Shown here in pieces: positions 6,887 through 64,000 of a DNA stretch of 64,000 nucleotides (positions are counted from its first letter, which is position 1; every line of letters starts with the position of its first letter). Source of the DNA: Pseudomonadota bacterium (GTDB lineage: Bacteria; Pseudomonadota; Gammaproteobacteria; JBCCGL01); contig JBCCGL010000005.1 of the NCBI GenBank assembly GCA_039029275.1, positions 209,122 through 273,121 of the forward strand, given 5' to 3'. Under the pieces are notes generated by a model that saw nothing but the letters and a program-made list of their open reading frames with translations, was not told where the DNA came from and did no database searches. A program made the position numbers and the translations under genes.

Positions 6887-7128
6887 GTCTGCGCTTCCGG
6901 GGCTTGCGTTGTTTGGGGCGCGCAAGGATACACCGGAACACGGTTTAAGTCAGGTCGCGAATGCGCTCGGGCCACCGGTTCCACGCCGGCAAATCGAGTG
7001 GCGTAACCGTTCTACGAAACCCGGAAGTCCGTGTGATCAGGGCTCGGAGGGCGTAAGAAACCGGCAATTTCGTAAAAATTCGCATTAATCATCTGAATTT
7101 ACGCGTTAGAATTTGTGCTCGGTATTGA

Positions 7129-9447: not shown

Positions 9448-9539
9448 CCCGCACCGCGGTGTCCGGCACGACTTGGAGCACCGCTCAAAACCACAGGCAG
9501 TTTCCGGTTTTTACGTCAATTGTCGTTCAGCTTTCCGGC

Positions 9540-10325: not shown

Positions 10326-10755
10326 ATATGTGCAGAGTGGGCAATATTACGAATTCGCGAAAAAAATAACCGAGAACAACGAAACCAGGTTTGCCACACG
10401 TTTGGAAAAGTTCACGACGTGCCCAGCGTACACATGCAATCCTATCGACACCTTGCCAAACTTATTTTACTTTTTTACAACGCCTGACTATCGAATCGGC
10501 TCGCTGCAAACATGGACGACAACGTAAGCCATAAAGGGATCACGGGTAAAGCCTACTCCATTTGCCGTATAAATTAACAAATTACTAATACGAATAACTC
10601 TCATTATTTTCTTCATTAATATCAAATAGTTAAAAAATTCCGGTTCTACTAGATACCGAAAAAACATCGGCGTATGCTGGTGTCGTCGCCGCCATTTAAC
10701 CGGTTCGCGGAACACAAAAAACACCAAACCAGCAAAGTCTACCCAGGAGGAATTT

Positions 10756-11229
10756 ATGCTCAAATCATTGAGTATCGACCCAGGTAAATGCACAGGTTGT
10801 TTGCAATGTGAGATGGCCTGCTCATACGAAGCCGAGGGTGTTTTCAACCCTTCAAAATCGCGTATCAAAGTCTTTACCTTTCATGACGAGGGGCGGTTCG
10901 TTCCCTACACATGCACGCAGTGCGCGGAAGCCTGGTGCCTGCAGGCCTGCCCGGTAGATGCGATTGTGATCAATGCCGATACCGGCGCCAAAGACATCCT
11001 CAATGATGTGTGCGTGGGCTGCAAAGTCTGCACCATCGCCTGCCCGTTCGGCACCGTGAACTACAACCAGGATACCGGCAAGGTGATCAAGTGCGATCTC
11101 TGCGGGGGTGATCCCAAATGCGCCGAGGCATGCCCCACCGATGCGATCACTTACGTTGACGCCGACGCTACGGGTCTGGAGCGCATGCGCGCCTGGGCGT
11201 CAAAAAGCGACAACCAGCCGGCAGCATGA
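10756..11229 (+). CDS. 4Fe-4S ferredoxin-type electron-transfer subunit (AorA-like)
   Basis: Four CxxCxxCxxxCP-type cysteine clusters. It lies immediately upstream of the AOR gene, as in bacterial AorABC. Confidence 0.8.
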   Translation: MLKSLSIDPGKCTGCLQCEMACSYEAEGVFNPSKSRIKVFTFHDEGRFVPYTCTQCAEAWCLQACPVDAIVINADTGAKDILNDVCVGCKVCTIACPFGTVNYNQDTGKVIKCDLCGGDPKCAEACPTDAITYVDADATGLERMRAWASKSDNQPAA

Positions 11230-11241
11230 GGGGGTGACATC

Positions 11242-15450: not shown

Positions 15451-16470
15451 ATGGCAACGCAACTCACCGACAAATTTAGGCGTCCGCTGCACGATCTGCG
15501 AATTTCAGTTACGGATCGCTGCAACTTTCGTTGCGTGTATTGCATGCCCAAATCCGTGTTCGACGGTCACAGGTTTCTGGCGCGCAGCGAACTTTTGAGC
15601 TTTGAGGAAATCGAGCGCGTGGCGCGCGTATTCGTCGACTACGGCGTCAAAAAGCTCCGCATTACCGGCGGCGAACCCATGATCCGTCATCAGTTAGAAA
15701 AACTGATTGAACGCCTCGCGAACATCCCCGGTGTCGAAGATATCAGCATGACAACTAACGCCTCAATGATGACGGTCAAGCGCGCACGTTCGCTCCGCGA
15801 CGCAGGCATGCAGCGGCTTAATGTGAGCCTGGACGCGCTCGATGACGAGACATTCAAAGCTGTTAATGACGTCGATTTTCCGGTTGAGCGAGTGCTCGAA
15901 GGTGTTGCCGCCGCCGATTCCGTCGGGTTCGAATCGATCAAGATCAATATGGTTGTGAAAAAGGGCATGAACGGCCACAGCATCGTGCCGATGGCGCGCT
16001 ACTTTCACGGCAGCGGGCAAATCCTGCGTTTTATTGAATTCATGGACGTGGGCAATTCGAACCAGTGGAACTACGACTCGGTGATTTCATCGCGTGAAAT
16101 CGCAGACATGATCGACGCCGAAATGCCGATTGAACCGGTGCAGGCCAACTATCGCGGTGAAGTCGCCAAGCGCTGGCGATTTAAAGACGGTGGTGGCGAA
16201 ATTGGCATCATCTCGTCTGTGACTGAACCGTTTTGCGGCGACTGTTCGCGCGCGCGATTATCGGCGGTGGGCAATCTGTATACCTGTCTGTTCGCATCCC
16301 ATGGTCACGATCTGCGCGAGGTTATCCGCGCGGACGTTGACGAGTCATTACTGCGCGAACGCGTTAAAACTATCTGGTCAATACGTCGGGATCGATACTC
16401 CGAAACGCGCACCAGTGAGTCGGTCATTTCGATTGTTCCCAAGGTCGAGATGTCGCATATCGGTGGCTGA
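15451..16470 (+). CDS. moaA: GTP 3',8-cyclase (molybdenum/tungsten cofactor biosynthesis protein A)
   Basis: Radical-SAM motif CNFRCVYCMP, the C-terminal Fe-S cluster CGDCSRARLSA and the GG tail identify MoaA. Confidence 0.9.
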   Translation: MATQLTDKFRRPLHDLRISVTDRCNFRCVYCMPKSVFDGHRFLARSELLSFEEIERVARVFVDYGVKKLRITGGEPMIRHQLEKLIERLANIPGVEDISMTTNASMMTVKRARSLRDAGMQRLNVSLDALDDETFKAVNDVDFPVERVLEGVAAADSVGFESIKINMVVKKGMNGHSIVPMARYFHGSGQILRFIEFMDVGNSNQWNYDSVISSREIADMIDAEMPIEPVQANYRGEVAKRWRFKDGGGEIGIISSVTEPFCGDCSRARLSAVGNLYTCLFASHGHDLREVIRADVDESLLRERVKTIWSIRRDRYSETRTSESVISIVPKVEMSHIGG

Positions 16471-16537
16471 CGCTCGTTTGACGACTGCAGCGCTCGCTGT
16501 TTTGATTTAATTTTAAAACCAAACCGCACTTACACGT

Positions 16538-16876
16538 ATGAAAACCATTGACTGGTCGGAATTCCGACAAGTAGAGCTTCGAGTTGGTACCGTAACCAGC
16601 GCCGAGGTGTTCGAAAAAGCGAGAAATCCGGCTTATATTTTGCACGTCGATTTCGGTAACGAGATTGGTGTCCGAAAATCCAGCGCGCAAATCACCGATT
16701 TGTACTCAACCGGCGAGCTCGTCGGCAAGCAAGTGGTTGCAGTGGTGAACTTTCCGCCGAAGCAGATAGGACCGATCATGTCGGAGTGTCTGGTCACGGG
16801 TTTTCATCGCGAAGACGGTGCAGTCGTGCTGGCGGTACCGGACAAAGACACGCCCAACGGCGCCAAACTCGCCTGA
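16538..16876 (+). CDS. tRNA-binding (EMAP/CsaA-like) domain protein
   Basis: 112 aa. LRVGTV…GKQVVAVVNFPPKQIGP…MSECLV matches the CsaA/Trbp111 fold pattern. Confidence 0.7.
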   Translation: MKTIDWSEFRQVELRVGTVTSAEVFEKARNPAYILHVDFGNEIGVRKSSAQITDLYSTGELVGKQVVAVVNFPPKQIGPIMSECLVTGFHREDGAVVLAVPDKDTPNGAKLA

Positions 16877-19382: not shown

Positions 19383-20107
19383 ACGCGCAAAACGGCCTCG
19401 GCCATTTCCATCATCGAGAAAAAGGTGAAGTCGACAGTTGGTCGTTTGGCTACTTCCGCTGTTGCCCCCCAAGAGCCGCCCTGCGATAAACGCTGACGAT
19501 CGATCCACGCTCTGGCTAACCCGGCGTTGGTCGCAGGCACATGATCGTGAAACAGACTTTGCGCGGTGTGCAAGATCTGGTCAGGTTCGACTCCCAAATC
19601 GCTCTTGATATTTTCCAACATAAAATCAAAGTTATTCGAATTTGGTTTGTATGAACCTGCATCCTCGGCGGTGTAAATCGCGTCGAACTCAACCCCAAGC
19701 CGATTATTTGATGCGGCAAATCCGGCGCGATCGACATTCGATAGAATCACGAGTTTGAAATGCTTTTTGAGAATGCGAAGCGCATCAGCGCTGTCAGAGA
19801 ATGCCGGCCAAAACGGCACGGATTCGCCGAAGGTGTCGTCAAGATCAGAGGTCGTTTCTAAATTGAACTCATCGGCAAGTGCTTGGTGCACGTGCCGAAG
19901 AACATCGGGATAAACCATTCCCGGTGTGGCGGCCTCCTGCGCGCTTTCTTTTTTTGCAAATTCGAGAAGCGCAGTATCGCGCGTTATGTCAGCTCGACGA
20001 TTGTGGCGGATTATCGGTTGCAGCGCGTCCCAGATCCCACTCTCCCAGTCGATCAGGGTGCCGTAGCAGTCGAAAGTAAGAGCAGAATAATCGGACAGTC
20101 CTTGCAT
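19379..20107 (-). CDS. HAD-superfamily hydrolase (haloacid dehalogenase type II-like)
   Basis: LTFDCYGTLIDWE (motif I DxYGT), …LSNVD… and …SYKPN… are HAD signature blocks. Confidence 0.7.
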   Translation of the reverse strand: MQGLSDYSALTFDCYGTLIDWESGIWDALQPIIRHNRRADITRDTALLEFAKKESAQEAATPGMVYPDVLRHVHQALADEFNLETTSDLDDTFGESVPFWPAFSDSADALRILKKHFKLVILSNVDRAGFAASNNRLGVEFDAIYTAEDAGSYKPNSNNFDFMLENIKSDLGVEPDQILHTAQSLFHDHVPATNAGLARAWIDRQRLSQGGSWGATAEVAKRPTVDFTFFSMMEMAEAVLRV

Positions 20108-20225
20108 CGTCAGTAGGCCGGGTTAGGTGTTTGCGAAAGCTTCACGTGTTATTTTGATTCGGACGAAATTACTCATGCGTTAAAAACGATATCACAAAGC
20201 CGAACATATTCAGAAAGTGATGTTG

Positions 20226-20708
20226 TCAGCGATTTATAGTCAGCTCCTTGGTAAAAAATTGACTATATGGATCAAGCTCGTAATTACCGAATGGTCCGCA
20301 CTTTACAAATCCATATTTTTTGTACATAGCGATTGCTGGAGCAAAAGCATCATGAGTACCCGTTTCCAAACTGACATGCAAATAGGCGCGCCGTTTAGCT
20401 TCAGCTAAAATCTCGCGCAGTATTTTTTCTCCAATGCCTTTTCGAAGGTAACGCTTATCTGTTTTCATAGACTTGATCTCACCAGATGTAGAGCACAATT
20501 CTTTAAGTGCTCCACAGCCCGCTATCTTTTCATCTAAACGAGCAGACCAAAATGTTATGGAGCTGTCCTTCAATTTTTCTGGCTCTATCGCGTGAATGCT
20601 CTGAGGTGGTGAATATTGATGCATTTCCTGCAGGTGATCATTGAGCAGTCTTGCAATATCGCCATCTGAGAGATCGTCTTTTTGTATTTCGACTTTCATA
20701 TTCTTCAA
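20226..20708 (-). CDS. GNAT-family N-acetyltransferase, in an AT-rich patch
   Basis: 160 aa with a GNAT core (…LRKGIGEKILREILAEAKRR…). The local base composition is visibly AT-richer than its neighbours. Confidence 0.75.
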   Translation of the reverse strand: MKNMKVEIQKDDLSDGDIARLLNDHLQEMHQYSPPQSIHAIEPEKLKDSSITFWSARLDEKIAGCGALKELCSTSGEIKSMKTDKRYLRKGIGEKILREILAEAKRRAYLHVSLETGTHDAFAPAIAMYKKYGFVKCGPFGNYELDPYSQFFTKELTINR

Positions 20709-20731
20709 CTAACTTAAAATTGCGTAAATCG

Positions 20732-20769
20732 AAAAAAAAAAACGGCAGTGACTTGAATAGTCACTGCCG
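20732..20769 (-). terminator. rho-independent terminator of ibpA
   Basis: Perfect 10-bp inverted repeat GGCAGTGACT-tgaata-AGTCACTGCC, followed on the minus strand by an 11-nt U-run, about 40 nt after the ibpA stop. Confidence 0.65.
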
Positions 20770-20805
20770 CCGATCTTGCTCTTAGTAAAAGAATTTACGC
20801 AGCGA

Positions 20806-21258
20806 TTACGCGACTTTGTGCGGGATCACTTTCTCCGCAGAACCAATCGCGATTGTCTTCGGCTTCATGGCCTCGGGCACTTCTTTCACCAGGCTGATAT
20901 TCAGCAAACCGTTATCAAGGCTCGCGCCGGTGACTTCGACGTGATCGGCAAGATTAAATTTGCGTTCGAAGCTGCGATTGGCGATGCCCTGGTAGAGATA
21001 ATTGCGCTGCACATCCGACTCGGCTTTTTTGCCGCGCACGGTTAGCACGCCTTTTTCTACCTGAATATCGAGTTCGCTTTCTTCGAAGCCTGCGACAGCC
21101 AGCGTAATGCCGTATTGGTCGTCGCCCGTGGCTTCGATATTGTACGGGGGATAACCCGCAGAAACTTGTTCACCGCGCAGTGCGGTATTCAGCAGCGAGC
21201 CGAAGCGGTCAAAGCCGATGCTGCTGCGATAAAGAGGGGTTAAATCGATAGTCGTCAT
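20806..21258 (-). CDS. ibpA: small heat-shock protein (Hsp20/alpha-crystallin family)
   Basis: The alpha-crystallin domain pattern YNIEATGDDQYGITLAVAGF…LTVRGKK…G(L)LNISL matches IbpA-like proteins. Confidence 0.85.
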   Translation of the reverse strand: MTTIDLTPLYRSSIGFDRFGSLLNTALRGEQVSAGYPPYNIEATGDDQYGITLAVAGFEESELDIQVEKGVLTVRGKKAESDVQRNYLYQGIANRSFERKFNLADHVEVTGASLDNGLLNISLVKEVPEAMKPKTIAIGSAEKVIPHKVA

Positions 21259-21915
21259 TGTATATTCTCCTAAAGAAGCAATATTGAGTTAAAAGGTCGC
21301 CCAACGCGGGCTGGCTTGCGGTGCTCTTTTTAAGACCCACCGTTTGCCTGTACTTCAATCTGGAGATGGACAAATTATTTTCAAGTTTTGGAGATGAGAA
21401 ATTACTAAAAAATGGTTCTCGAAGGCGCTTATGTGGGAAACATACGCTTAACCACCCATTTCAGGTCGGAGTCGCTCGAAGGTTGGGATGTCCGATGGAA
21501 CGACGGCCTATTTCGCTGCTGACGCTGTGAAGATGGCTATTTCGGGAGAAAACTCACCGTTGCCATCAATGGTTGACGCGGCGACTGTGTGAAATCCGGC
21601 GCGGGTAAATTCGGAACTCAAACTGACGCCGCAGACCGGACACGTATAAGCGTTAAGATCAGCGCCTGCGTCGTCTTGCATCGTGTACTTCGCAGGTTAA
21701 GTTTCGCTGGTGAGCGCGAAGCTGTCGCATGGAAGCCAGATTCCAAACCACTGGTCGGTCCCGGTTCGTATTTGACAATCCGTGCAATAGCAAAAAACCT
21801 GCTTTATCGGTTCACCTTAAAACTCAAAACGAACGCGACCACATTCGCAACCACCTGTTCGCATCACTATCTTCGCTAATTGACCACATACTTATTTTTT
21901 GTGGCACTGAAAAAT

Positions 21916-43104: not shown

Positions 43105-43366
43105 ATTTGTATAGTATTCGATTGTGTTGTTATGTCATTAACGGTGTTCCGGAACGTTTCGGCATGTACCCAGGAATCCCGGATAATGCACGGCGTTCTT
43201 GACCGCTTACGCGCCATCGCCGTCCCGATCAACGCTTGGATCACCGATTTTTCTGCTCAATGATCTGCTCCGCTGGAAACTGCGTAAAATACATCCAGAA
43301 TCCGACGCAACACAACAAGCTTGACCCTAGTGACCAACAAAAATATGTGCACGCTCGCCCCCTACA

Positions 43367-44476
43367 TTGCGTGAGTTATCGATGAAACCTAACTCTCGCC
43401 GAGCGTTGAAGAACAAAATCCGTATTAGCTTGGACCGCACGCTGCTCACGCATCTGCGGTCTTTATGGCTGCCGACTTTCAAAATCGAAGGGAAAACGGC
43501 CGGTGGGGAATCATTGACGCTGTTGTACGCCGGCACGGACGCAGAGCGTATGTATCTGAAATCAATACTGTTTCCCGATGGTGCCAAACAGCAGCGTCTT
43601 GGCAGGCATTTTTTCTGGCAAATCGACCCGCTGGCAACAAAGCTGGGGGCTGACATACAAGTCAGCGTCGCCACATATATCACGCGATTTCTTTTCCCAA
43701 GCGAACAACATTTCTATATTCCAACGTGGCTTGAATGCGAAGCGTCTATTGAAAAGACGTCGGTAACAATTGGTACCACAAAATCACGCCGCCGGCAGAT
43801 TAAACAACTCCTTAAACACAACATGCATTATTCGGTGACAAGAGATCTGGATGACTTAATGCACTTTTATGAGCGAATGTACAAACCGCTGATCTCACAA
43901 TCCCACGGTGGAAACGCTCTAATGATGAAGGCCGACCACATGCTTGAGCGCGTAACTAACGGCGAAGGTGATTTGGTTTTAATTCACCAGGGTGATGACA
44001 CGATAGCGGGTAGCCTGATTGTTTACGACAAAGGTCAGCCACGCTTGTTTTCAGAAGGAATACTCGATGCCGATAAACGTTATATGCGTCAAGGAGTAGG
44101 GTCCGCAATATACTTGTTCAGCTTTCAATATCTCATCGAAAAAGGTTTTAGCCGTGTCAACCTGGGACGTTGCAGGGCGTTTGTTAACGACGGTGTTTTT
44201 TACTTCAAAAAACGTTTTGGCTTGGAAATTATTGGCGAGTTGCAAAAAGGCATGTTACTAAAAAATGTCTCGAATTCGCCTGCGAGCATCAAAATCCTAA
44301 GCTCTAATCCTTTTGTGTATTTGAAAGGCGGAAAGCGCTTTATTGCTCACTTTCTGCGAAAAAATATTGACAGTAATTCAGATGCCACACCTGATTCAGA
44401 GAACGATCTCGATTTGAGTGTTCTCGGGGTAGAGGATGTTGTTGCGATTACGCCTGCGAACGACCGCGTTATCTGA
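43367..44476 (+). CDS. FemAB/Acetyltransf_6-like GNAT-fold protein (island paralog 1)
   Basis: About 365 aa with a C-terminal GNAT-like block (…RQGVGSAIYLFSFQYLIEKGFSRVNLGR…FYFKKRFG…). It resembles the BioF2/CelD/FemAB-type long GNATs and lies in an AT-rich region. Confidence 0.55.
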   Translation: MRELSMKPNSRRALKNKIRISLDRTLLTHLRSLWLPTFKIEGKTAGGESLTLLYAGTDAERMYLKSILFPDGAKQQRLGRHFFWQIDPLATKLGADIQVSVATYITRFLFPSEQHFYIPTWLECEASIEKTSVTIGTTKSRRRQIKQLLKHNMHYSVTRDLDDLMHFYERMYKPLISQSHGGNALMMKADHMLERVTNGEGDLVLIHQGDDTIAGSLIVYDKGQPRLFSEGILDADKRYMRQGVGSAIYLFSFQYLIEKGFSRVNLGRCRAFVNDGVFYFKKRFGLEIIGELQKGMLLKNVSNSPASIKILSSNPFVYLKGGKRFIAHFLRKNIDSNSDATPDSENDLDLSVLGVEDVVAITPANDRVI

Positions 44477-45347
44477 CGTGGAACGTCAACGTTGCCCAAA
44501 GTGATTCGTAGAAAATACGCGGCTCTTCCAAACCGAGAGCCGTGAGAATTCCTGTATACCAATACTCCGATTCATCCTTCTTTCGTAAGTCTATAAAACG
44601 CACATACCAGTTGCCCGATTGGCCAAGTGTGAAACGGACTTGGCCGTTTTCATCTGAGCGCACCCTAACCAAATCAGAATATTCGGATTCGGTATTTTCG
44701 TCTATGTGCGCTTCATGAGAGGCAAAAACCAGCGTATCGGCCAAGGGTTTGCCGTCTTTGTAAATTGTTGCAGCAAATTGCTCACCCTCAGTGAGTGCAA
44801 ATGTATTCACATCCGGGATAATTTCAACGGGATAGCCCAATGGGTTTGCAAAATTTTCACTGAGTTTGTCGCCGGCCTGAATAGCGGACTTGGCGAATTT
44901 GGAAAATCGTTCGACAACGGCGGTGTCTGATTCGCCAGCAATTTTTCGTTCTGCGATCTGATCCGACAATCCCTCAGATTTGAGATAACGGTTAAACTTT
45001 TCCGCCGCCAGCCGTATCGTGTGCGGGCGAGTCGCTAAACCGATGAAATACGTACCTTCTGCGCCAAATTCGTACCTGCCCCGCGTTACCTTGTCGCTAA
45101 GCGTCCACTCGTTTTCAAGAAAAGAGTCGGTATCCCCTGAGGGCAGTAACACATCCGCCGACGCTCGCGATCGTCCTTTGATTGAGGACTCGCTCACATG
45201 AAACGATCCGTTTATGAATGGAAGCGATACGTCGGTGTTCGGAGTGACGAAATGTGATTCGGGCTTTGCGAACAGGGTGTGCGCGTGAGCGTGTCCGAGG
45301 CTGCACATCAATACGGCAGCGGTCACCATTTGAGCGGAGGCACGCAT
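44469..45347 (-). CDS. secreted protein, DUF4198-like (periplasmic partner often found with Ni/Co uptake genes)
   Basis: Signal peptide (MVTAAVLMCSLGHAHA) followed by a beta-rich ~270-aa domain. It starts 3 nt after hupE. The family assignment is from memory and uncertain. Confidence 0.45.
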   Translation of the reverse strand: MRASAQMVTAAVLMCSLGHAHAHTLFAKPESHFVTPNTDVSLPFINGSFHVSESSIKGRSRASADVLLPSGDTDSFLENEWTLSDKVTRGRYEFGAEGTYFIGLATRPHTIRLAAEKFNRYLKSEGLSDQIAERKIAGESDTAVVERFSKFAKSAIQAGDKLSENFANPLGYPVEIIPDVNTFALTEGEQFAATIYKDGKPLADTLVFASHEAHIDENTESEYSDLVRVRSDENGQVRFTLGQSGNWYVRFIDLRKKDESEYWYTGILTALGLEEPRIFYESLWATLTFHVR

Positions 45348-45349
45348 CG

Positions 45350-45928
45350 TTAAGCACCGACGAGGACGTGCAAGCCAATGCCTGCGATGCCAGCCCCCAC
45401 ATAACGCAAGACTTGCGGACCATCTTCGAATCTTGATGCCAGCCCGCCAACGCCGACACCGAGCAGGTGAATCACTGCGGTGCCCATCATGAACCCCAGA
45501 GAATACATGTACGGACTCGCGATCTCGGGCATTTCAAGCCCGTGTGCGTAGCCGTGAAAAATTGCGAAAAACGCGACAAATGCGAGGCTTATCATCGGTG
45601 ACAGTTTTAGATTCGCAGCGATTGCAAGACCCAGGACCAACACTGACAATGCGATACCTGATTCGACGAGCGGGAGCCCGATATCTGCGAGGCCGGCGAT
45701 GCCTCCCAGCACCATCACCCCAACAAATGTTGCCGGGACATACCAGATAGCTTTACCACCGATCTGGTAACTGATGATGCCAACGCTGATCATTGCAAGG
45801 AAGTGGTCAAAACCCAATATTGGGTGCAACAAGCCGACAACGAAGCCTACTCCCTCAACGGAGTGATCTTCGTGCGCCATCACTATCGACGGAATCGCCA
45901 ACAGTACCAAATAAGCAAACTTCCTCAC
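45350..45928 (-). CDS. hupE: HupE/UreJ-family nickel/cobalt permease
   Basis: The N-terminal signature AHEDHSVEGVGFVVGLLHPILGFDHFLAM (the HPxxGxDH motif) plus six TM helices is typical of HupE/UreJ. Confidence 0.8.
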   Translation of the reverse strand: MRKFAYLVLLAIPSIVMAHEDHSVEGVGFVVGLLHPILGFDHFLAMISVGIISYQIGGKAIWYVPATFVGVMVLGGIAGLADIGLPLVESGIALSVLVLGLAIAANLKLSPMISLAFVAFFAIFHGYAHGLEMPEIASPYMYSLGFMMGTAVIHLLGVGVGGLASRFEDGPQVLRYVGAGIAGIGLHVLVGA

Positions 45929-46002
45929 CTCTTACTCCAATTTTGTTTGTTTGAAAATGCGAAATACTAATAGATCGTATACCGGTTGTTCTGCGGATCA
46001 GA

Positions 46003-47148
46003 TCATATTCGTTGATCGTTACCCGTGCTTTTTCGGGATTCAAGAAGCGTCTTGAATTTGAAAATCCAAAACAATATCAAACCTTTGACTGTGTTACCTG
46101 GAGTACGCAATGACACGTATCGCTGCACTCTGGGATTCCACACGCGATGCGCGGGGCTATCCGATATCAGACTTATAACCTTGACGTCTGAATGATCGGC
46201 AAAGTGCTCGAGTAGAAAACGCTTGACCAAAAGTCCCGGAGAGCATTTTGAAAATTCCTGGTCGTACGCAGTTTTTAGACCGACACAAAACTGACCAAAA
46301 ATCAGGCAAACCTGCATACCAATGAGCTTTTGATCTATGTACAGAGCAAATAGTTCGACATTTCCACTTTCTGCCAATTTTGAAATGACACGTTGATAAA
46401 ACTGCTTTTTTCGCGGACTAAGTGAAATCGCTAGTGGTTTCTTGTGCTTTCCGCGACCCTTTCCGTGCCCACCTTTCCATCCTCTTTCTTCTAACTCCAG
46501 GAAATTCGCAAAGCCGTCCAAAACATGGCCGATCTCAACCAAGCGGCAGTATTCCACAATACCCAGCGCATTTGCCTGCTTGATGCGCCTCGTAATGTTT
46601 TGCCGATGCTTGCGTGTGAAGTTGCCGCTCAGAGTTTCGTATGCATCCAAATCAATGAAGTTGCACGAATCACGGCTCCTTTTAAACACGATGGGTTCGC
46701 CGCTATTCGAAAACATCTCGATAAGAACCGAACTGTCCAACACCTCCTTGGCAAGAAAAACATCCCACTTCGTGTTTCTATAGCGTTTGAGTTCTCGAAT
46801 AAAGAATAAAAAAACTGCAGCCTTGTCCGCCTCCTTATTAATCAGAAAATCAGGCATGTACAGTTGTTCTCTTGACGGAATGCTAGCCTGAGTCCACGTG
46901 ATTAACGAACCTTTCTTTTCAAACTCAATTGGGAACACGGCTACGAGCTTAGCGGACTGAAAAACCGCAAAGAAATGGATTCTGTCTTGAGTCTTTTCTA
47001 CCTCTTTAATAAACGCCTCGAACCATGCGGGGTGGCAGTAGAACGAGCGAATATCAGCAACCTCGGTAAGACTCAACCACTCGTCGCGGAGACGGTCAAT
47101 TCCTGACTGGCCGACGAAAACCTCAATCTCGAAATCAGCGTGGCTCAA
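46003..47148 (-). CDS. FemAB/Acetyltransf_6-like GNAT-fold protein (island paralog 2)
   Basis: 381 aa. …GNFTRKHRQNITRRIKQANALGIVEY… and the C-terminal …VELFALYIDQKLIGMQVCLIFG… block match the CelD/FemAB-type GNAT family. Confidence 0.65.
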   Translation of the reverse strand: MSHADFEIEVFVGQSGIDRLRDEWLSLTEVADIRSFYCHPAWFEAFIKEVEKTQDRIHFFAVFQSAKLVAVFPIEFEKKGSLITWTQASIPSREQLYMPDFLINKEADKAAVFLFFIRELKRYRNTKWDVFLAKEVLDSSVLIEMFSNSGEPIVFKRSRDSCNFIDLDAYETLSGNFTRKHRQNITRRIKQANALGIVEYCRLVEIGHVLDGFANFLELEERGWKGGHGKGRGKHKKPLAISLSPRKKQFYQRVISKLAESGNVELFALYIDQKLIGMQVCLIFGQFCVGLKTAYDQEFSKCSPGLLVKRFLLEHFADHSDVKVISLISDSPAHRVWNPRVQRYVSLRTPGNTVKGLILFWIFKFKTLLESRKSTGNDQRI

Positions 47149-48260
47149 TGGGAACGTCTAATGGTTTTTTTAAGATAGTAGGCAGCACGAACTATGGACC
47201 CGATCAGCGTACGGTTAATCGCTTGCAGTTCGATTACCTCTCGGCTTGTCGGCTTCCAAACTTTCTGCCAGGAATAACTTGAAATCATATCGTAGCGTGT
47301 GACATCAGGGTGTTGACTATAGCGATCGATCACGTATTTCCTGAGCAATTGACCGGGACTGGCATCGGTGTACCGCTCGTTAAAGCCGTGCTTTAACCAA
47401 TAAACAGACGCGCCTGAAATTACGCAAAAATCTGCTGCTACTGGCTCTTTATTGATGAGCAAAAGGTGGATATCGCAGCGGTTCGATCGCGCAAATCGTT
47501 TCATCAAGTTCCGGTAAAATTCCAACTGGTCGGGATGCAGGGCAATTGCCCGTTTACCGCCTCTTTGACTCTTCCACCCCGACGCTTCAAGCGCTACGAA
47601 CTGATCGAAAGCATGATCAAGTACGCTCTGATCACACACGGTTACGAACTCCACCTCGCCGAGTGCTTTTAATCGCGCCAGTCCTCGCTTTAGATTACTA
47701 CGCATTTTCTTGGCTAAGACGTCCCTTCCGTAATCGTCAAAGTCGAGCTGAATGAAATTATTGATTGCTATCGCTCTGATCGCAAAGGGGGATGCAACCT
47801 CTTTTCCGACAAGTTGGGATAGTTCGTCCTGGATAAAACCACCCAGCTTTACCAAGTCCCAGGCAACATAGACGTGCAATTGACGCAGGAGTCTGTGGAG
47901 ATCATCCAGTGACCAATCGGGCGGCCACAACATGCCCCTAACCGGAATTGGAGTATCAGGTAGTTGGAGTATTTTGACGGACAAAAAGAGCCGCTTTTTT
48001 AACACTTTTGAGAGCGGCAGCACGGCCCGAAGCTCGACGCCCCGGTACACAGCAACGATGAATTCGAATTGGGCATTCTTACGCAGAGATTCGAAGTATG
48101 AGAGATAATACCCCGATGTCTGCATTAACCCGGTTTGCCCAAAGGATTCGGCGAGGGAATCCCACGCCTGCGCAAGCTTACGAATTTCACTGATTTCATG
48201 GACGATCTCGACGCGCACATCTTCGCCTGCCAGATTTGTTTGGATACTGATTGACTCCAC
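47145..48260 (-). CDS. FemAB/Acetyltransf_6-like GNAT-fold protein (island paralog 3)
   Basis: 371 aa with a parallel motif (…KKMRSNLKRGLARLKALGEVEF… …HLLLINKEPVAADFCVISG…). It overlaps the downstream paralog by 4 nt. Confidence 0.65.
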   Translation of the reverse strand: MESISIQTNLAGEDVRVEIVHEISEIRKLAQAWDSLAESFGQTGLMQTSGYYLSYFESLRKNAQFEFIVAVYRGVELRAVLPLSKVLKKRLFLSVKILQLPDTPIPVRGMLWPPDWSLDDLHRLLRQLHVYVAWDLVKLGGFIQDELSQLVGKEVASPFAIRAIAINNFIQLDFDDYGRDVLAKKMRSNLKRGLARLKALGEVEFVTVCDQSVLDHAFDQFVALEASGWKSQRGGKRAIALHPDQLEFYRNLMKRFARSNRCDIHLLLINKEPVAADFCVISGASVYWLKHGFNERYTDASPGQLLRKYVIDRYSQHPDVTRYDMISSYSWQKVWKPTSREVIELQAINRTLIGSIVRAAYYLKKTIRRSH

Positions 48261-48622
48261 TATCTTTTACATTTTTTCCGCGAATCTGACTTTTTGATTG
48301 GATTGACCATTGACCTACGGAGGAGTGTCAACGACTTACAAAACCACATCAAGGGGTTTTTAAAAAATGTCCAATCAATCGGCACAAACGGAAAACTCAG
48401 GTGTTCTCCAAATTGTGGAAGTCATTTGCTCACAGTAATTTTGTTTTAATTTTCTGGTTTTCTGGTTATCACGCCAATTCGTACCTACACGGTCAGATAT
48501 CGGATCACAGTCGAAGTTCAAAACACCGAGTTCAACACTGTCTTTTGTCCGCACCGATTCAATTTTGCGATCTGGACCTGCGCAGCACACCCGAAGATTT
48601 TGGAAGAGGCTTAATCCTCGTT

Positions 48623-49531
48623 TTACTCGTGCTTATCGGTAGCGGTTATTCCCGCCGCAGCCGCGACCACACAGGCAACCGCGATCATACCCTGTATCCC
48701 CATTCGCTCACCCAGTATCACCGCACCAATCAATGCTGCAACCGCAGGTTCAACGCTGACCAAAACGCCGTACATACGCTTGGTGATCTTCTTCAGCGCT
48801 TCGAATTCGAGCGTAAATGGAATACTCGTTGAGAGTAACGCGACACCTATGCCAACAAAAATGATCAGCGGGTCATTTACCATCGCGGGCAGCGCAGGAA
48901 TCGCAAACGGAATCATTGCACAAGCGGCAACAGTCATTCCGATGGCCAACCCATCGTGACCGGGGATGCGACTCGAAACACGCGTTGACAGGATGATAAA
49001 CAGCGCCCAGCCCGTGCCCGCGAGAACCGCGAACAATATGCCGATTGGGTCAAGGTCGATACCCGAAAGTGGCGACAAAAGGGCAATGCCGGCTGCGGCC
49101 AGAGCAACCCAACCAAAATGGCTGACACGCCGCGAGTTAAACGCGGCCACGCCAAGCGGTCCGATAAACTCAATGGCTACAGCAGCTCCGAGTGGAATGC
49201 GTGCAATCGACTGATAAAAAAACATGTTCATCGCCGCAAGACACAAGCCAAACATCAACAGCAACATCCGGTTTTGGGCAAATATTCGCGTGGTTTGACG
49301 AATACCCGTGCGCGAGACAATCAACAACAGGATCGCAGCGAAAATGATTCGTACGGCGACTGCCCCATCTGCCCCGATAACAGGGAACAAATTTGTCGCG
49401 AAAGCTGCGCCGAGCTGGATCGCGACAATTGCCAACAACACCAGCCCGGGAGGTGGAATGGCGCCCAGCATGTTTGCAGCGACGGACTCATTATCCGGCA
49501 TGGATCGCGCAGCTCTTCTATCGTCGCTCAT
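48623..49531 (-). CDS. DMT-superfamily (EamA-like) transporter
   Basis: Ten TM helices in two EamA repeats. The true start may be downstream of the ORF's first Met. Confidence 0.75.
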   Translation of the reverse strand: MSDDRRAARSMPDNESVAANMLGAIPPPGLVLLAIVAIQLGAAFATNLFPVIGADGAVAVRIIFAAILLLIVSRTGIRQTTRIFAQNRMLLLMFGLCLAAMNMFFYQSIARIPLGAAVAIEFIGPLGVAAFNSRRVSHFGWVALAAAGIALLSPLSGIDLDPIGILFAVLAGTGWALFIILSTRVSSRIPGHDGLAIGMTVAACAMIPFAIPALPAMVNDPLIIFVGIGVALLSTSIPFTLEFEALKKITKRMYGVLVSVEPAVAALIGAVILGERMGIQGMIAVACVVAAAAGITATDKHE

Positions 49532-49653
49532 TATTACAAGTATTGGTTAACGTAAGTTGTATGCTTGGAACAGTCCGCAGACGAAATTACTTTCGCACTG
49601 AATAAAACTGCTTTATTTGTCCACTGATCTCATATCGAATAATTATTTTACAT

Positions 49654-51357
49654 TCAGTTTACCGACAGTGCCCTTGAATCGGCCTCGAGCAATTCATAAA
49701 TCTTGCAGACAATTAACGCGCGTAACGCAATCGCCATATAATCAACGCGCGGCACATCTGGCACTTTAATCAGCGTTTTACGCGCCTTGTTCAGCAGCCT
49801 ATCGCACTGCCGCATGAAAGCGGACTTCTTTCTAACCGTAGATTTCTCAGCGTGCTTAACAATGAATTCAATCGCTTCGCTGGAAAAAACGCCCGTTTGC
49901 TGGCTACGTAAATATTCGAAAATATAAGCGACAACGTCTTCGCGTCCAAGAAATTCAGCCCTGCTGCTGGTCGAACCTTTACTCGCTAGCTTTATGTCCC
50001 CAGAGTTTTCCTCAACAATTTCTTTAAACAGAGATTTATCGTTACGGTAGGTATAGGGCTGGCTGCGAATGCTCTCCGCAATTTCCCGACTAAGCAGCGG
50101 GTTGATTAACTCGCAAAAATAAGATTTGATCAAATTTAGCCCCGCCAAACTGGCAGGCATGAGATAAGTAAAATAAAGTCGATCGATATAATCACCCATT
50201 TCCTCATTTTCTTTGATCATATCAGCTGGGTTGTAATCTTGAGCAGGCAATTTTAACTTTTGAATGAGTTCTTGCGTGTTCGAGTAGTCCTGTAGCCTGA
50301 AGAACCGCCAGTCTTTGTAGAGTTCCTCCGTTGTTTCGCGCCACGTATTCCCAAAAGCTTCGTCACCTCGAATGATGCCTTCAATGCCATCGTTGTAGAT
50401 ATTGCGCCACATTCGAAATCCATCGGTGTAACCCGATATGTTATCGACGAGGCCTTCTCCGTGCGCCACAAACGAATCAAAAACTCGACCAATCGTATCG
50501 ACGTTTTTAGGGTCTAACTCATAATAAGTGTGGGCAGTTTTGTATTTTTGACTCAACTCTGCTGCAACCGCAGCATCAGATCTTTTATCATCCCCTGATC
50601 GTGCTTTCCCCCAGGTTATAGAGCGCAGGTTCGGTTGCTCTCCGATTGCTTGAATAATGCCGCGGCTATCGTAGCCCCCTGAAAGCGCGATTGGCCACTT
50701 TGCAAAGTCGATACGCATACTGGAAACAGAATTTTTAATCGCGGATGCCAGCCGGGATTTGTGAGATTCTTTACTCGCTTGTTTCGGGCTGTAGCACAGT
50801 TCGGTCGTTTGCAATGCGCACGTCCAGGAATCCCTGTCCAGCGTCAAAATCGTATCGGGTGGCACACGGTGTAATCGATCGTCCCAGCTTATTTTTGCTC
50901 CCAGTACTCCGTTCGAGAGCATCCAGCCGGGTGCCTGCACGTTTGGAGAAAAGTTGCCCAGCAACGCAAGCAAAGCGCGCTGGGATGTGGCCGCGAGAAA
51001 TTTGTCTTCGTCGTGAAAATACCAGATCGGGCGCGAGCTATAGACGTCTGTAGCGACCTGAATATGAGTGCTGTCTCCGCGGAATAAAGCGTAACTGCCA
51101 TCTGGCGTATACCCGCCAACCTTATGCCACTCCTCTGAGTCATTCAAAAAATTTCCGACCGCAACGTTAATGCCGTTGACAGGGAGTGAATCTGGTTTGT
51201 TAATGACGCCTGCAACAATTCCATCGTTTTGTGCAACATGGGGCTCCAGGTACGCGATGTCAGCCGGTTCAAGCAGGTCGGATATTTTAACGATGTAATC
51301 CGAGACTGCTGCGGCTTCTGATCTGTCTACGAAACATGCACATATTGCGTGGGCCAT
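49654..51357 (-). CDS. asparagine-synthetase-family PP-loop amidotransferase lacking the N-terminal Cys nucleophile
   Basis: 567 aa. The PP-loop SGGYDSR and the surrounding AsnB-like synthetase domain are present. The N-terminus MAHAIC… has no MCG nucleophile. Confidence 0.7.
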   Translation of the reverse strand: MAHAICACFVDRSEAAAVSDYIVKISDLLEPADIAYLEPHVAQNDGIVAGVINKPDSLPVNGINVAVGNFLNDSEEWHKVGGYTPDGSYALFRGDSTHIQVATDVYSSRPIWYFHDEDKFLAATSQRALLALLGNFSPNVQAPGWMLSNGVLGAKISWDDRLHRVPPDTILTLDRDSWTCALQTTELCYSPKQASKESHKSRLASAIKNSVSSMRIDFAKWPIALSGGYDSRGIIQAIGEQPNLRSITWGKARSGDDKRSDAAVAAELSQKYKTAHTYYELDPKNVDTIGRVFDSFVAHGEGLVDNISGYTDGFRMWRNIYNDGIEGIIRGDEAFGNTWRETTEELYKDWRFFRLQDYSNTQELIQKLKLPAQDYNPADMIKENEEMGDYIDRLYFTYLMPASLAGLNLIKSYFCELINPLLSREIAESIRSQPYTYRNDKSLFKEIVEENSGDIKLASKGSTSSRAEFLGREDVVAYIFEYLRSQQTGVFSSEAIEFIVKHAEKSTVRKKSAFMRQCDRLLNKARKTLIKVPDVPRVDYMAIALRALIVCKIYELLEADSRALSVN

Positions 51358-51489
51358 ACTGACTCATATCCCAATTGAAATCTGAATTGCGTTTACACCG
51401 ATAAAGCAATGCAAAGATTGATGTGGTTCTCAAGTTACACATCACTTGGCAGGCGGTTGATTTCGGTGAGCACATCATACGCGAAACCA

Positions 51490-56819: not shown

Positions 56820-56839
56820 GGCTCGTGACTACCCAGGAT

Positions 56840-57457
56840 TTACCAATGGCGCAGCACGCCGACGGCGATGCCTTCGATCGACAGCGACTGCTTTTGCAGA
56901 TCGACAATAATCGGCGGGAAGTGCTCATTCTCGGCTTGCAGGTAGATTTTGTCGCCGCGTTTGCGCAGGCGTTTGACCGTGACTTCGTCGTGCAGGCGTG
57001 CGACCACAATCTGGCCATTGTCTGCATCCGGCTGGCGTTTTACCGCGAGCAAGTCGTCGTCCAGAATCCCGATATCGCGCATACTCTCACCGCGCACGCG
57101 CAGCAGGTAGTCGGCCTTGGGGCGGAAAAATTCGGGATCGATACGGCAGTAGTCCTCGATGTGCTCCTCGGCCAGAATCGGCGAGCCCGCTGCCACCTGA
57201 CCGACAATCGGCAAGCCGCGCGATCTGGCGGCACGTTTGCTCTCCTGCTGCACAATGCGAATGCCGCGCGAGGCGTTCGGAATCAGTTCGATTGCGCCCT
57301 TTTTCGCCAGCGCCTGCAAGTGACCGCGCACACCGTTGGGCGAGCTAAGCTCGAGCGCTGCCGCGATCTCAGCCACCGTTGGCGGCATGCCGTGGAGTTT
57401 CAAGTGGCGGCTGATACAGTCCAGCACCTGCTGCTGGCGTTCGGTTAATTCATCCAT
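56840..57457 (-). CDS. lexA: LexA repressor
   Basis: The N-terminal [15 protein letters not shown]…, the Ala-Gly cleavage site (VAAGSP) and the S24 Ser/Lys dyad (…RVRGESMRD…VKRLRK…) identify LexA. The start is set at MDELTERQ. Confidence 0.9.
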
Positions 57458-57473
57458 CTGGATTGCTCTTAAT

Positions 57474-57504
57474 CTGTTTATATAAACACTGTTCAAATAA
57501 ACAG
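57474..57504 (-). promoter_or_regulatory. two tandem overlapping LexA (SOS) boxes upstream of lexA
   Basis: CTGTTTATATAAACAC (CTGT-N8-ACAC) abuts CTGTTCAAATAAACAG (a perfect CTGT-N8-ACAG), 17-47 nt upstream of the lexA start. Confidence 0.75.
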
Positions 57505-61782: not shown

Positions 61783-62928
61783 TTATTGGTACACCGCAAC
61801 CGGATTACCCAGACTGACAAAGTCAGGCTCAACACCTAGACCCGGTTGATTGCTGGCGTACAATTTTCCGCCCTCGGTTCTTGGGCCGGGAGTACCGGTT
61901 GGCTCAACATTATAGCTGTGTAAATCCGTAGTATTGATCAAAAATTCAGCCGGCGTGGAAGCGGCGAAATGCGAAATAACTGCAGTTGTAATCTCTCCAC
62001 CCCAGGTGTCTTCGCTGATCACCGGAATGCGATTGTCGATAAAAAAATCGCGCACGCGCCGCGCTTTTGATATTCCACCCAGGTTAGAAATTTTAAGGCA
62101 AACGATTTCAGCCGCGCGATCATTTACGATTCGCTGGGCCATCGCAATACCGGTGACGCACTCGTCGAGCTTTATCGGCAGGTCGACGCGCCGCCGTACC
62201 TGTAAGCACTCTTCGTAGCTGTGACAGGGCTGTTCCATCACATAGTCGAGGTCGCGCGTGGCGCGTGCAACGCGCAGGGCTTCGTCGACATGCCACCCCT
62301 GGTTGGCGTCGGCCAGCGCTTTTTCACCCGGCTTTAACGCGTTGACTGTCGCGCGAATCCGGTCAATATCCGTACGCCAATCCGAGCCGACTTTGATCTG
62401 GAATTGTTTGTACCCTTCGGCGCGTAAAATATTGAGTTCGGCGACCATCTCCTGTGGTGGCTTTTGCGGCGCAGGGCGATACATCGGTGCCCCATCGATC
62501 AACTTACCTCCCAACAGCATCCACACGGGTTGCTCGGTTGCCTTGCCTAAAATGTCCCAACACGCTGCATCAAAAGGTGCCTTGGCGTATCCATGCCCTT
62601 GTATCGTGTGGTCCATTATGCGCTCAATCTTCGAGACTTGACGCGGGTCTTCGCCTAGGAGTCTTGGTGCGATTAATTTGGCCGCGGCTTCAGCGCCTTC
62701 ATCGAAAGCAACCATGTAATTGTTGCCGCAGGGGCAGAATTCACCGCATCCTGAAATACCTGCATTGGTTTCGATGACCACTACAGTCGAATTAGCGGAT
62801 TCGATTACGTTGCCTCGTCCCCACGCGTAGGCACCCCGACCATAACGCAGTGCTTTTTTGTAAATCGAAATTTTTGTTATGCGCAAAACAGGCACCTCTG
62901 ATTTGTTGTCGCTTGATCTTATTGGCAC
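61783..62928 (-). CDS. enolase-superfamily enzyme (mandelate racemase/muconate-lactonizing enzyme family)
   Basis: …KVGSDWRTDIDRIRA…DANQGW…KLDE…CLKISNLGG… are MR/MLE metal-ligand and KxK-type blocks. Confidence 0.8.
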   Translation of the reverse strand: MPIRSSDNKSEVPVLRITKISIYKKALRYGRGAYAWGRGNVIESANSTVVVIETNAGISGCGEFCPCGNNYMVAFDEGAEAAAKLIAPRLLGEDPRQVSKIERIMDHTIQGHGYAKAPFDAACWDILGKATEQPVWMLLGGKLIDGAPMYRPAPQKPPQEMVAELNILRAEGYKQFQIKVGSDWRTDIDRIRATVNALKPGEKALADANQGWHVDEALRVARATRDLDYVMEQPCHSYEECLQVRRRVDLPIKLDECVTGIAMAQRIVNDRAAEIVCLKISNLGGISKARRVRDFFIDNRIPVISEDTWGGEITTAVISHFAASTPAEFLINTTDLHSYNVEPTGTPGPRTEGGKLYASNQPGLGVEPDFVSLGNPVAVYQ

Positions 62929-63039: not shown

Positions 63040-64000
63040 TCAGATTCGATACTGCGCGACCGGCGCGCCTAACACTTCAGCGTCAGGTTCGATTCCCAAA
63101 CCAATCGAATCGGGAAGATCGAAGCACCCCGTGCGATTACGCGCACCCTGGCCAGGGGCGGGGTCGACGCTTACCATGTCCTGACACGACCAGCTTCCGA
63201 GACAATATTGTGAGGGAATACTTTGCGCAAAATGCGCAGCCGCGGTATCGGCAATCACGGACCCTCCTGTATCCATAACCAGCATAGTCATTCCGCTTGC
63301 AAGGCAAAAATCCCGCATACGGCGCCCCTTGGTTAAGCCGCCAACACGGTTAATTTTTATGTTAACCATTTCCGCGATCTGCTCGTGCTGTATTCTCAGC
63401 ATGTCTTCAAATGTATGGAGACTTTCATCGATACACAGTACTGCATTTGTTTGAGTATGCACTTGAGCAGTTTCTGTAAGAGTTTCGCAGGGTTGTTCGT
63501 ACCAGGTTTGTATGCGATCCGCTGCGTTGATAACGGTAATGGCCTCGCGCGATGACCACGCGCGGTTGCTGTCGAAATAAATTGTTTCATCTTCATGACG
63601 TTCAGCCCAAAGCGCGTTGATGCATTCAATGTCTGAATCCACCCCCGAACCGATTTTGCACGAGTGCACACGATAGCCCTTCGCGCGGTAGTCGTTGATT
63701 TCCGCAAGCATTGAATCAGGAGAGCTATTGGAGATACTCGATGCTATCGGCACGCGGTGAGCTTCGCGCGCGCCGAGCATTTCGCATAGCGGAACGCCAG
63801 CCGCGCGCGCGGCGATATCCCACGCCGCGATATCGAGCGCTGATTTTGCGTAGAGATGACCGGGTAGTGCGTGATCCATAGTGCGATTCAGTGCATCGAG
63901 CTGACGCGGATCACATCCAAGGATCGCGGGAACCAGTTCTTCGAAGGCAGCGCGGATACCACGCCCATGCGCCGGCAGGTAGCTCGACCCCCAGGGGCAA
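63040..64000 (-). CDS. enolase-superfamily enzyme (MR/MLE family), 5' end beyond window
   Basis: …AKSALDIAAWDIAA…DSNRAW…IDES…NIKINRVGG… motifs. The reading frame stays open to coordinate 64000, so the N-terminus is outside the window. Confidence 0.75.
   Translation of the reverse strand, partial: CPWGSSYLPAHGRGIRAAFEELVPAILGCDPRQLDALNRTMDHALPGHLYAKSALDIAAWDIAARAAGVPLCEMLGAREAHRVPIASSISNSSPDSMLAEINDYRAKGYRVHSCKIGSGVDSDIECINALWAERHEDETIYFDSNRAWSSREAITVINAADRIQTWYEQPCETLTETAQVHTQTNAVLCIDESLHTFEDMLRIQHEQIAEMVNIKINRVGGLTKGRRMRDFCLASGMTMLVMDTGGSVIADTAAAHFAQSIPSQYCLGSWSCQDMVSVDPAPGQGARNRTGCFDLPDSIGLGIEPDAEVLGAPVAQYRI

Follow-up and report, generated by a model that had tools for sequence, protein, structure and literature searches.

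A low-GC segment of a gammaproteobacterial contig carries a recurrent module of predicted FemX-fold transferases and a HupE-DUF4198 pair

We analyzed a 64,000-nucleotide (nt) stretch of a Pseudomonadota contig (JBCCGL010000005.1), hereafter the window, and within it an AT-rich segment of seven genes at positions 43367-51357. An earlier account made from the letters alone, the sequence-only reading, had proposed that this segment encodes one small-molecule biosynthesis, export and uptake system. Searches with Pfam and NCBIfam upheld all seven open reading frames (ORFs) and their family assignments. We refer to the three transferase-like genes as G1, G2 and G3; together with hupE and a DUF4198 gene they make up the module that is the subject of this report. 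The features of the segment are as follows.

43367-44476, plus strand: G3, a borderline match to Pfam Acetyltransf_6 (23.5 bits; gathering score 22)
44469-45347, minus strand: DUF4198 protein (Pfam DUF4198, 89 bits)
45350-45928, minus strand: HupE (Pfam HupE_UreJ, 186 bits)
46003-47148, minus strand: G2 (Pfam Acetyltransf_6, 66 bits)
47145-48260, minus strand: G1 (Pfam Acetyltransf_6, 88 bits), first gene of the G1-G2-hupE-DUF4198 operon
48261-48622, minus strand: spacer of 362 nt upstream of G1, G+C fraction (GC) 0.41, the presumed promoter region
48623-49531, minus strand: EamA/DMT transporter (Pfam EamA, 65 bits; NCBIfam RhtA, 198 bits against an equivalog cut-off of 354)
49654-51357, minus strand: AsnB-like protein of 567 residues (Pfam Asn_synthase, 18.4 bits; gathering score 21)

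The coordinates agree with two details of gene layout that had been pointed out before: the G1 and G2 ORFs overlap by 4 nt, and G3 is convergent with the operon. The G3 and DUF4198 ORFs overlap by 8 nt. The hupE gene lies upstream of the DUF4198 gene with a gap of 2 nt and is separated from G2 by 74 nt. The AT-richness of the segment, previously judged by eye, is genuine but modest. The span 43105-51489 has a GC of 0.482 compared to 0.546 for the remaining window and is the lowest among all 8.4-kb windows of the 64 kb (mean 0.536, standard deviation 0.021). Consistent with these values, mean GC at third codon positions is 0.535 in the seven genes and 0.625 in 39 other long ORFs (Mann-Whitney p = 2e-4). 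On the flanks, Pfam and NCBIfam confirmed a C-S lyase of PatB type and an S58 peptidase to the left and DnaE2 and an ImuB-type polymerase to the right.

Whether the GNAT-GNAT-hupE-DUF4198 arrangement recurs in other genomes had been posed as a test of the sequence-only reading, and it does. Using the contigs of G1 and G3 homologs, a one-genome-per-species scan, and tblastn with the window proteins, we found the core, or large parts of it, in nine other contigs, along with the third GNAT-like gene and in several unrelated genomic contexts. A short second contig (L005) with the same protein as L004 was left out of this count. The gene orders, read from left to right, are listed below.

Window: G3 rightward; DUF4198, HupE, G2 and G1 leftward
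L008: the window order, with a sulfotransferase upstream of G1
L009: G3 rightward; DUF4198 and HupE leftward
L010 (Woeseiaceae): G3 leftward; sulfotransferase, G1, a G2 fragment, HupE, DUF4198 and a TonB-dependent receptor rightward
L011 (Woeseiaceae): G1, G2, HupE and DUF4198 rightward
L012 (Pseudomonadales metagenome-assembled genome, MAG): ATP-grasp ligase, DUF4198, HupE and G2 leftward; sulfotransferase and G1 rightward
L006: HupE and DUF4198, then, further along, G3, G1 and G2, all rightward
L004: G3, G1 and G2 rightward, without the metal pair
L016: G3, G1 and G2 rightward, on a 3.2-kb contig
L007: G1 and G2 rightward, on a contig that begins at G1

HupE and DUF4198 are present in six of the nine other loci (L006 and L008-L012). 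G3 lies beside G1/G2 and/or HupE-DUF4198 in L004, L006, L008, L009, L010 and L016, and G2 orthologs follow G1 in L004, L006, L007, L008, L011 and L016 and are divergent to it in L012. Three loci (L008, L010 and L012) add a sulfotransferase that is weakly similar to the glycan sulfotransferase NoeE. Identity to the window proteins ranges from 33-40% for G1, 34-44% for G3 and 36-46% for DUF4198 to 55-70% for HupE. An all-against-all comparison of the ORFs identified six families in common: G1/G2, G3, DUF4198, HupE, the sulfotransferase, and a sensor-kinase/response-regulator-type family that is found in two loci only. The GC of the module tracks that of its host (0.47-0.60) and is slightly under that of the flanks in six of seven loci, so the module resembles accessory DNA of long residence more than a recent acquisition.

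Recurrence of this kind could arise without any functional link, if the GNAT genes and the HupE-DUF4198 pair were adjacent by shared ancestry in a single group of environmental Gammaproteobacteria and the low GC merely marked accessory DNA. In keeping with this possibility, the module loci with a given taxonomy are Woeseiaceae or Pseudomonadales MAGs, L004 carries three GNATs without the metal pair, and neither the more distant G1 relatives (L013-L015) nor 79 loci of the wider G3 family have HupE or DUF4198. However, the same five families stay together despite at least five different orders and orientations, with identities as low as 33-45% for the GNATs and DUF4198, and the all-against-all comparison revealed no flanking gene family common to three or more module loci. 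Furthermore, the G2-hupE junction, 74 nt long in the window, is a 4-nt overlap in L008, and the two genes abut in L010 and L011 by our own ORF calls. Linkage that is kept through rearrangement, relocation and divergence typically marks a functional unit and selection for co-expression, and we consider adjacency by ancestry alone to be very unlikely.

Additional genes accompany the module in some loci. L012 has an ATP-grasp amino-acid ligase that resembles BacD and DdaF; in L004, multicopper oxidase and Metal_resist genes come after an amidase; L009 encodes a family-5 peptide/nickel binding protein; and L010 carries the TonB-dependent receptor. We lean towards the view that these neighbors point to a metal-linked small peptide-like compound. 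Directly after G2 and before the amidase, L004 also encodes a 502-residue protein with a PP-loop-like SSGYDST motif (L004:4358-5866). It has no Pfam or NCBIfam match, and of the fetched loci only L061 encodes a relative; we did not count it as a recurrence of the AsnB-like gene, the hhalign probability against that family being 4.6%. In L009, a 1x long-read contig, a 1233-residue fusion of Glyco_transf_20, Trehalose_PPase and DUF4198 was called at 8618-12319. It looks like a gene-calling artefact, since translation reveals separate HupE and DUF4198 frames broken by frameshifts. The same locus has an MR_MLE (enolase-superfamily) gene divergent beside G3 that is 44% identical to one of two MR_MLE paralogs in the window (61783-62928 and 63040-63879, both on the minus strand; the match is to the former). 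L009 may therefore come from a relative, or the MR_MLE gene may be loosely associated with the module.

We next consider the proteins themselves. The three GNATs had been described as paralogs. For G1 and G2 this holds: judged by BLASTP they are distant paralogs (24% identity, E = 3e-27). By contrast, G3 gave no BLASTP match to either, and hhalign between the G1 and G3 families returned a probability of 0.3%, so that G3 is no detectable sequence paralog of G1 or G2. Instead, G3 belongs to a separate, large and unnamed family that has only its fold in common with G1 and G2. This family comprises 1882 representatives of 50%-identity clusters at E<=1e-3 and 170 at E<=1e-30, and its other members score 19-42 bits against the Acetyltransf_6 model. 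Close homologs numbered eight for G1 among 5.8 billion proteins and three for G3 in a word search, and plasmid searches with G1 and G3 recovered distant GNATs only. Some G3-family proteins are about twice the usual length (P0207, P0209, P0239 and P0282). One of these, P0282 (790 residues), ends in a flavin amine-oxidase domain (199 bits), which may hint at an amine as acceptor or product.

Structure prediction had been suggested as a way to distinguish FemX-like from CelD-like transferases. AlphaFold2 models of G1 and G3 (mean predicted local distance difference test scores of 93.3 and 90.8) both have a tandem-GNAT architecture, and the top match of each in the Protein Data Bank (PDB) by Foldseek was FemX. 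For G1 the E value was 3e-12 with a template-modelling (TM) score of 0.57-0.66, and for G3 it was 4e-10 with a TM score of 0.36-0.42; the global TM range of G3 was 0.36-0.51. The best PDB neighbors of the two models were transferases that depend on aminoacyl-tRNA, namely Weissella FemX, Staphylococcus aureus FemA and FemX, the peptide synthases Sba18/Sbb17 and aminoacyl-phosphatidylglycerol synthases, with MprF in the G1 list. Acyl-CoA-dependent tandem GNATs (VipF and a clavulanate protein) aligned to G1 with TM scores of 0.33-0.45, below those of FemX. The models thus support, at the level of fold, the description of G1 and G3 as FemX-like rather than simple acetyltransferases, and the fold of G2 is taken from its 24% identity to G1. 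None of the three proteins matched a FemAB-family model in Pfam or NCBIfam at E<=0.01, and sequence searches of the PDB with single sequences of G1 and G3 and with a G1-family profile found no true relatives. Lysine 281 of G3 is invariant in an alignment of 107 sequences and lysine 290 of G1 is present in at least 90% of 60; both lie in the C-terminal GNAT domain. These residues are compatible with the use of tRNA and do not decide the donor.

The other half of the module is the HupE-DUF4198 pair. In the window, the DUF4198 protein has a signal peptide that ends in AHA and would leave a mature N-terminus beginning with histidine (HTLFAKP). This A|HTLF.KP N-terminus is kept in all six full DUF4198 copies of the module, each with a signal peptide ending in alanine. 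Similarly, HupE of the window reads VMA|HEDH after its signal peptide and has a GLLHPILGFDH motif in its first helix, and in all six HupE copies HE(E/D) comes after a signal peptide and the motif GLLHPxLGxDH (HPxxGxDH) is retained. Thus, HupE combines its Pfam match with a signal peptide, a mature N-terminal histidine and the HPxxGxDH motif expected of a HupE/UreJ permease, and the DUF4198 protein combines its Pfam match with a secretion signal and an N-terminal histidine after cleavage, as expected of a metal-binding protein of this family. The DUF4198 protein of Ideonella (IsDUF4198) binds Ni2+ via its N-terminal histidine, and HupE-type permeases with periplasmic His-1 capture domains follow an "anglerase" logic (PMC12537917). 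Zcp, a DUF4198 protein of Neisseria under the control of Zur, captures zinc in the periplasm; in vitro it binds Co, Ni and Cu as well, and it associates with the envelope-maintenance machinery (PMC12663993). The similarity of the window DUF4198 protein to Zcp is marginal (E = 0.06). Taken together with the conserved N-termini, these precedents make it credible that the predicted HupE-DUF4198 pair captures a divalent transition metal in the periplasm and imports it across the inner membrane. In the window, hupE has no neighboring genes for Ni or Co enzymes.

Full-text literature searches found no published description of a cluster that unites FemX-type transferases with HupE and DUF4198. The parts are known families (PF13480, HupE/UreJ and DMT, as well as DUF4198) or unnamed branches of known superfamilies (G3 and the AsnB-like protein), and the persistent combination of HupE/DUF4198 with three FemX-fold transferases, whether or not a sulfotransferase is added, appears to be undescribed.

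The EamA and AsnB-like genes have a different distribution. No homolog of either was found in the nine other module loci; they are neighbors of the module only in this genome and not members of it. The proposal that the whole 8 kb is one system, in which the AsnB-like protein and the GNATs synthesize a compound, EamA exports it and HupE/DUF4198 returns the metal, loses its export arm and its AsnB-like enzyme in every other copy. Its appeal comes from the six co-directional minus-strand genes, with gaps of 122 nt (AsnB-like/EamA) and 362 nt (EamA/G1), from the lower GC across all seven genes, and from the 502-residue PP-loop-like protein that follows G2 in L004 and precedes an amidase. In addition, other loci add different amide-forming enzymes, and the module may recruit a variable ATP-dependent ligase. 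However, the similarity of the L004 protein to the AsnB-like family is not significant, the EamA gene has a GC of 0.547, equal to the window average, and the AsnB-like family is mostly found apart from all the other genes. A single eight-kilobase system therefore strikes us as highly improbable, and we are fairly confident that the segment is a composite of a conserved module, an RhtA-like DMT transporter and an AsnB-like enzyme.

The AsnB-like protein belongs to a family of about 570 residues, with at least 159 matches among 8000 candidates scored and 30-37% identity among the matches listed. Its relatives are mostly nameless or "hypothetical", and a few are labelled asparagine synthase. The protein starts MAHAICAC and, as had been noted, lacks the N-terminal cysteine nucleophile that defines glutamine-dependent AsnB; none of 26 aligned family members has cysteine at position 2. 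In this alignment the start reads M-[AS]-K-x-I-Y-I-C, the PP-loop LSGGYDSR is invariant, and conservation extends through the first 128 residues. The public annotation of the gene (AAF434_08745, 439 residues) covers 77% of the ORF. Because P31, G68, W77, P85 and G87 are conserved in the missing first 128 residues, the annotation is truncated and the 567-residue reading is right. TIGR01536 scored 29.7 bits against a cut-off of 267, Pfam Asn_synthase likewise fell under its gathering score, and neither the single sequence nor the family profile had a sequence match in the PDB. We predict an ATP-dependent amide-forming enzyme without a glutaminase nucleophile.

Several more specific roles for this protein were tried and rejected. 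As a lasso-peptide macrolactam cyclase, its best NCBIfam match (NF033561) reached only 42 bits against a cut-off of 300, the neighboring ORFs include no B-type protease, and the contexts of the family are polysaccharide loci. As the PEP-CTERM XrtA amidotransferase (TIGR03108) it scored 21.6 bits against a cut-off of 816.9. These results agree with the earlier statement that lasso-peptide B/D genes and a PEP-CTERM context are absent. A role in phage defence, suggested by a prophage copy, was dropped since PADLOC returned nothing and the gene is present in a single viral contig.

Members of the AsnB-like family occur mostly in polysaccharide loci, Wzx/Wzy- or glycosyltransferase-rich (L003, L097 and L098), and also in two stand-alone positions and in one SPbeta-like prophage. 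The polysaccharide locus L003, from a Gammaproteobacteria MAG, has three tandem AsnB-like paralogs (6616-11728) along with two sulfotransferases, glycosyltransferases and a G3-family gene (15599-16660), and in L059 a G3-family gene is flanked by two AsnB-like genes. The prophage or phage member (L002:10001-11713 and L095:8001-9671) is 37% identical and sits between YomF/YomG-like tail genes and a holin/endolysin cassette, a typical "moron" position; IMG/VR contains one contig only with an AsnB-like gene. G3-family genes lie beside AsnB-like genes in six of 34 long G3-family loci. Collectively, these contexts place the AsnB-like and G3 families in a shared habitat, glycan-decoration loci.

No integrase, transposase or recombinase was found by Pfam among the ORFs scanned between 42493 and 51357, as had been reported, and ARAGORN predicted no tRNA in the window. 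A repeat search for island borders returned only short, chance-level pairs as flanking repeats. Of the hallmarks of a mobile island the segment therefore has composition alone, with no recombinase among those ORFs, no tRNA and no flanking direct repeats above chance level. PADLOC gave no defence-system matches, and matches to PHROGs were weak and of unknown function only. The spacer upstream of G1 (48261-48622) corresponds to the position held by the sulfotransferase gene in L008, L010 and L012; it contains no sulfotransferase remnant. Scans for promoters and terminators were at or below shuffle expectation. At 48290-48330 on the minus strand of the spacer, some 40 nt upstream of the start of G1, a TTGACA-like hexamer precedes a short direct repeat, GGTCAATGGTCAAT. 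The repeat has no counterpart that we could see in the other module loci and may be a candidate operator.

Elsewhere in the window, smaller low-GC patches are found at 9-11 kb and 20-22 kb. The first includes a GDSL-lipase gene (9540-10325, minus strand; GC 0.455), and the second has about 1.8 kb at GC ~0.44-0.50 (20100-21900) with short ORFs only (<=160 residues). A putative lexA (56825-57448, plus strand), so called in the sequence-only reading and next to an imuA-like gene, has no Pfam match at E<=0.001 when read on the plus strand, and an almost co-extensive ORF occupies the same site on the opposite strand (56840-57496, minus strand).

On balance, and with moderate confidence, we favor the interpretation that the segment contains a conserved accessory module (G1, G2, G3 and DUF4198/HupE) plus two passengers, and that the module performs metal-linked transferase chemistry. 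Given the recurrence, the earlier suggestion that amide-bond-forming transferases are tied to a metal-uptake pair is a reasonable one. Judging from the gene layout, G1, G2, hupE and the DUF4198 gene would be expressed as a single unit. The N-terminal histidine of the DUF4198 protein would capture a divalent metal, and the ion would cross the inner membrane into the cell through HupE; both families suggest Ni2+ or Co2+, and possibly Zn2+. In the cytoplasm, the three transferases could add aminoacyl or acyl groups in turn to an amine-bearing acceptor, as their fold and neighbors suggest, the donor being aminoacyl-tRNA, as in FemX, FemA and FemB, or else acyl-CoA. The resulting product might be a small peptide-like conjugate, sulfated where the sulfotransferase occurs, that would serve either as a chelator for metal acquisition or as a cell-envelope decoration made during metal acquisition. 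A metal-related, peptide-like small molecule as the product is a possibility that we put forward only tentatively.

Several observations pull the other way. The module lacks a conserved exporter, and only one locus has a TonB receptor, so that a secreted chelator would be left without a dedicated route; moreover, HupE is regarded as a permease for free ions rather than for chelates. The nearest named NCBIfam relative of G1 and G2 within PF13480 is BspF, annotated as an acyl-CoA-dependent crotonyltransferase, and with this relationship the tRNA dependence of the transferases is not assured. Across 79 metagenome loci, at 26-40% identity, the wider G3 family is never found beside HupE or DUF4198, and its habitat favors a glycan or envelope acceptor. 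Rfam searches of the whole window at gathering thresholds gave no match to a riboswitch or other RNA, including a cobalamin or NiCo riboswitch upstream of the module, and a consensus search upstream of the operon starts in eight loci found no convincing Zur, Fur or NikR box. Finally, the module loci all come from uncultured environmental bacteria, the named ones from the restricted set of taxa given above, and part of the linkage could be inherited synteny.

The chief rival is an envelope or glycan decoration system that is co-expressed with metal uptake. Here, the FemX-like enzymes, together with the sulfotransferase where present, would aminoacylate or acylate and sulfate a peptidoglycan, lipopolysaccharide or exopolysaccharide precursor in the cytoplasm. 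HupE-DUF4198 would be co-expressed since metal scarcity calls for both, and the AsnB-like enzyme would provide extra glycan amidation in this genome. The wider G3 family often adjoins glycosyltransferases, CapK-like adenylating ligases, TupA-like ATP-grasp enzymes and radical S-adenosylmethionine enzymes, and G3 and AsnB-like relatives share Wzx/Wzy-type loci that also have sulfotransferases. The co-occurrence of the two families, the weak NoeE-likeness of the module's own sulfotransferase, the action of characterized FemX and FemA on cell-wall precursors, and the association of the DUF4198 protein Zcp with envelope maintenance (PMC12663993) all fit such a role. By contrast, none of the ten module loci has a glycosyltransferase, flippase, polymerase or mur gene in or adjoining the module, several have small-molecule-type enzymes instead (amino-acid ligase, amidase, DAO/amidohydrolase), and the close translational coupling of G2 and hupE is left unexplained. 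We judge envelope decoration to be rather unlikely.

Returning to metal-linked transferase chemistry, its most novel form would be a ribosome-independent route, dependent on aminoacyl-tRNA, to a small, sometimes sulfated, peptide-like chelator of Ni or Co (or Zn) in uncultured Gammaproteobacteria such as Woeseiaceae, and hence a new biosynthetic class of metallophore. In this version, the three FemX-like enzymes would attach residues one after another, the DUF4198 protein would strip the compound of its metal in the periplasm, and the ion would enter the cell through HupE. We regard it as improbable on present analysis.

We class the module as a metal-uptake operon with a novel enzymatic arm. 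HupE and DUF4198 have only recently been given biochemical roles and are usually discussed with hydrogenase, urease, NikR or TonB receptors. A HupE/DUF4198 subfamily that is locked to three FemX-like transferases, and often to a sulfotransferase, suggests that Woeseiaceae and related bacteria for which only MAGs exist have an unrecognized enzymatic side to Ni/Co/Zn acquisition. Should aminoacyl-tRNA prove to be the donor, the known range of tRNA-dependent peptide-bond formation outside the ribosome would extend to Gram-negative metal physiology. The analysis also delimits two unnamed and unannotated families found in polysaccharide loci, the G3 family (about 1900 clusters at 50% identity) and the Cys-less AsnB-like family of about 570 residues.

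A parallel in overall organization is offered by the opine-type metallophore (cnt) operons for staphylopine and pseudopaline, which, like the module, are small and join biosynthetic enzymes to uptake of Ni, Co or Zn. Their enzymes (nicotianamine-synthase-like and opine dehydrogenase) are from families wholly unlike those of the module, which has neither a chelate-type importer nor a conserved exporter. The pairing of FemAB-like with AsnB-like proteins is a known theme of exopolysaccharide loci, and a like pairing is seen in the wider G3 family. Unlike PEP-CTERM systems, the segment has no GNAT that matches the PEP-CTERM FemAB model of NCBIfam, and no exosortase or glycosyltransferase among the ORFs examined around it. 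G1 and G2 are clear PF13480 members, as are the CelD/BcsL-type Acetyltransf_6 proteins. In predicted tandem-GNAT fold and top structural matches, G1 and G3 resemble FemX, FemA and FemB and Sba18/Sbb17, and the presence of several diverged copies in one locus recalls FmhB, FemA and FemB and suggests successive additions. The differences from FemABX are that PF13480 is not the FemAB family and the TM scores are moderate; that FemABX proteins act on the Gram-positive cell wall, whereas the module has Gram-negative hosts and no cell-wall genes nearby; and that the partners here are a metal permease and a metal-binding protein. Those partners resemble characterized HupE/UreJ and DUF4198 proteins (IsDUF4198 and Zcp) in their strong Pfam matches, in the N-terminal histidine of both proteins and in the HPxxGxDH motif. 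Neither hydrogenase nor urease, NikR or a B12 riboswitch accompanies the window pair. Its predicted scheme, capture by a periplasmic His-1 domain and then import through a HupE-type permease, is that of the "anglerase" permeases (PMC12537917), in which a capture domain is built into the permease; capture protein and permease are here separate genes, in an operon with transferases.

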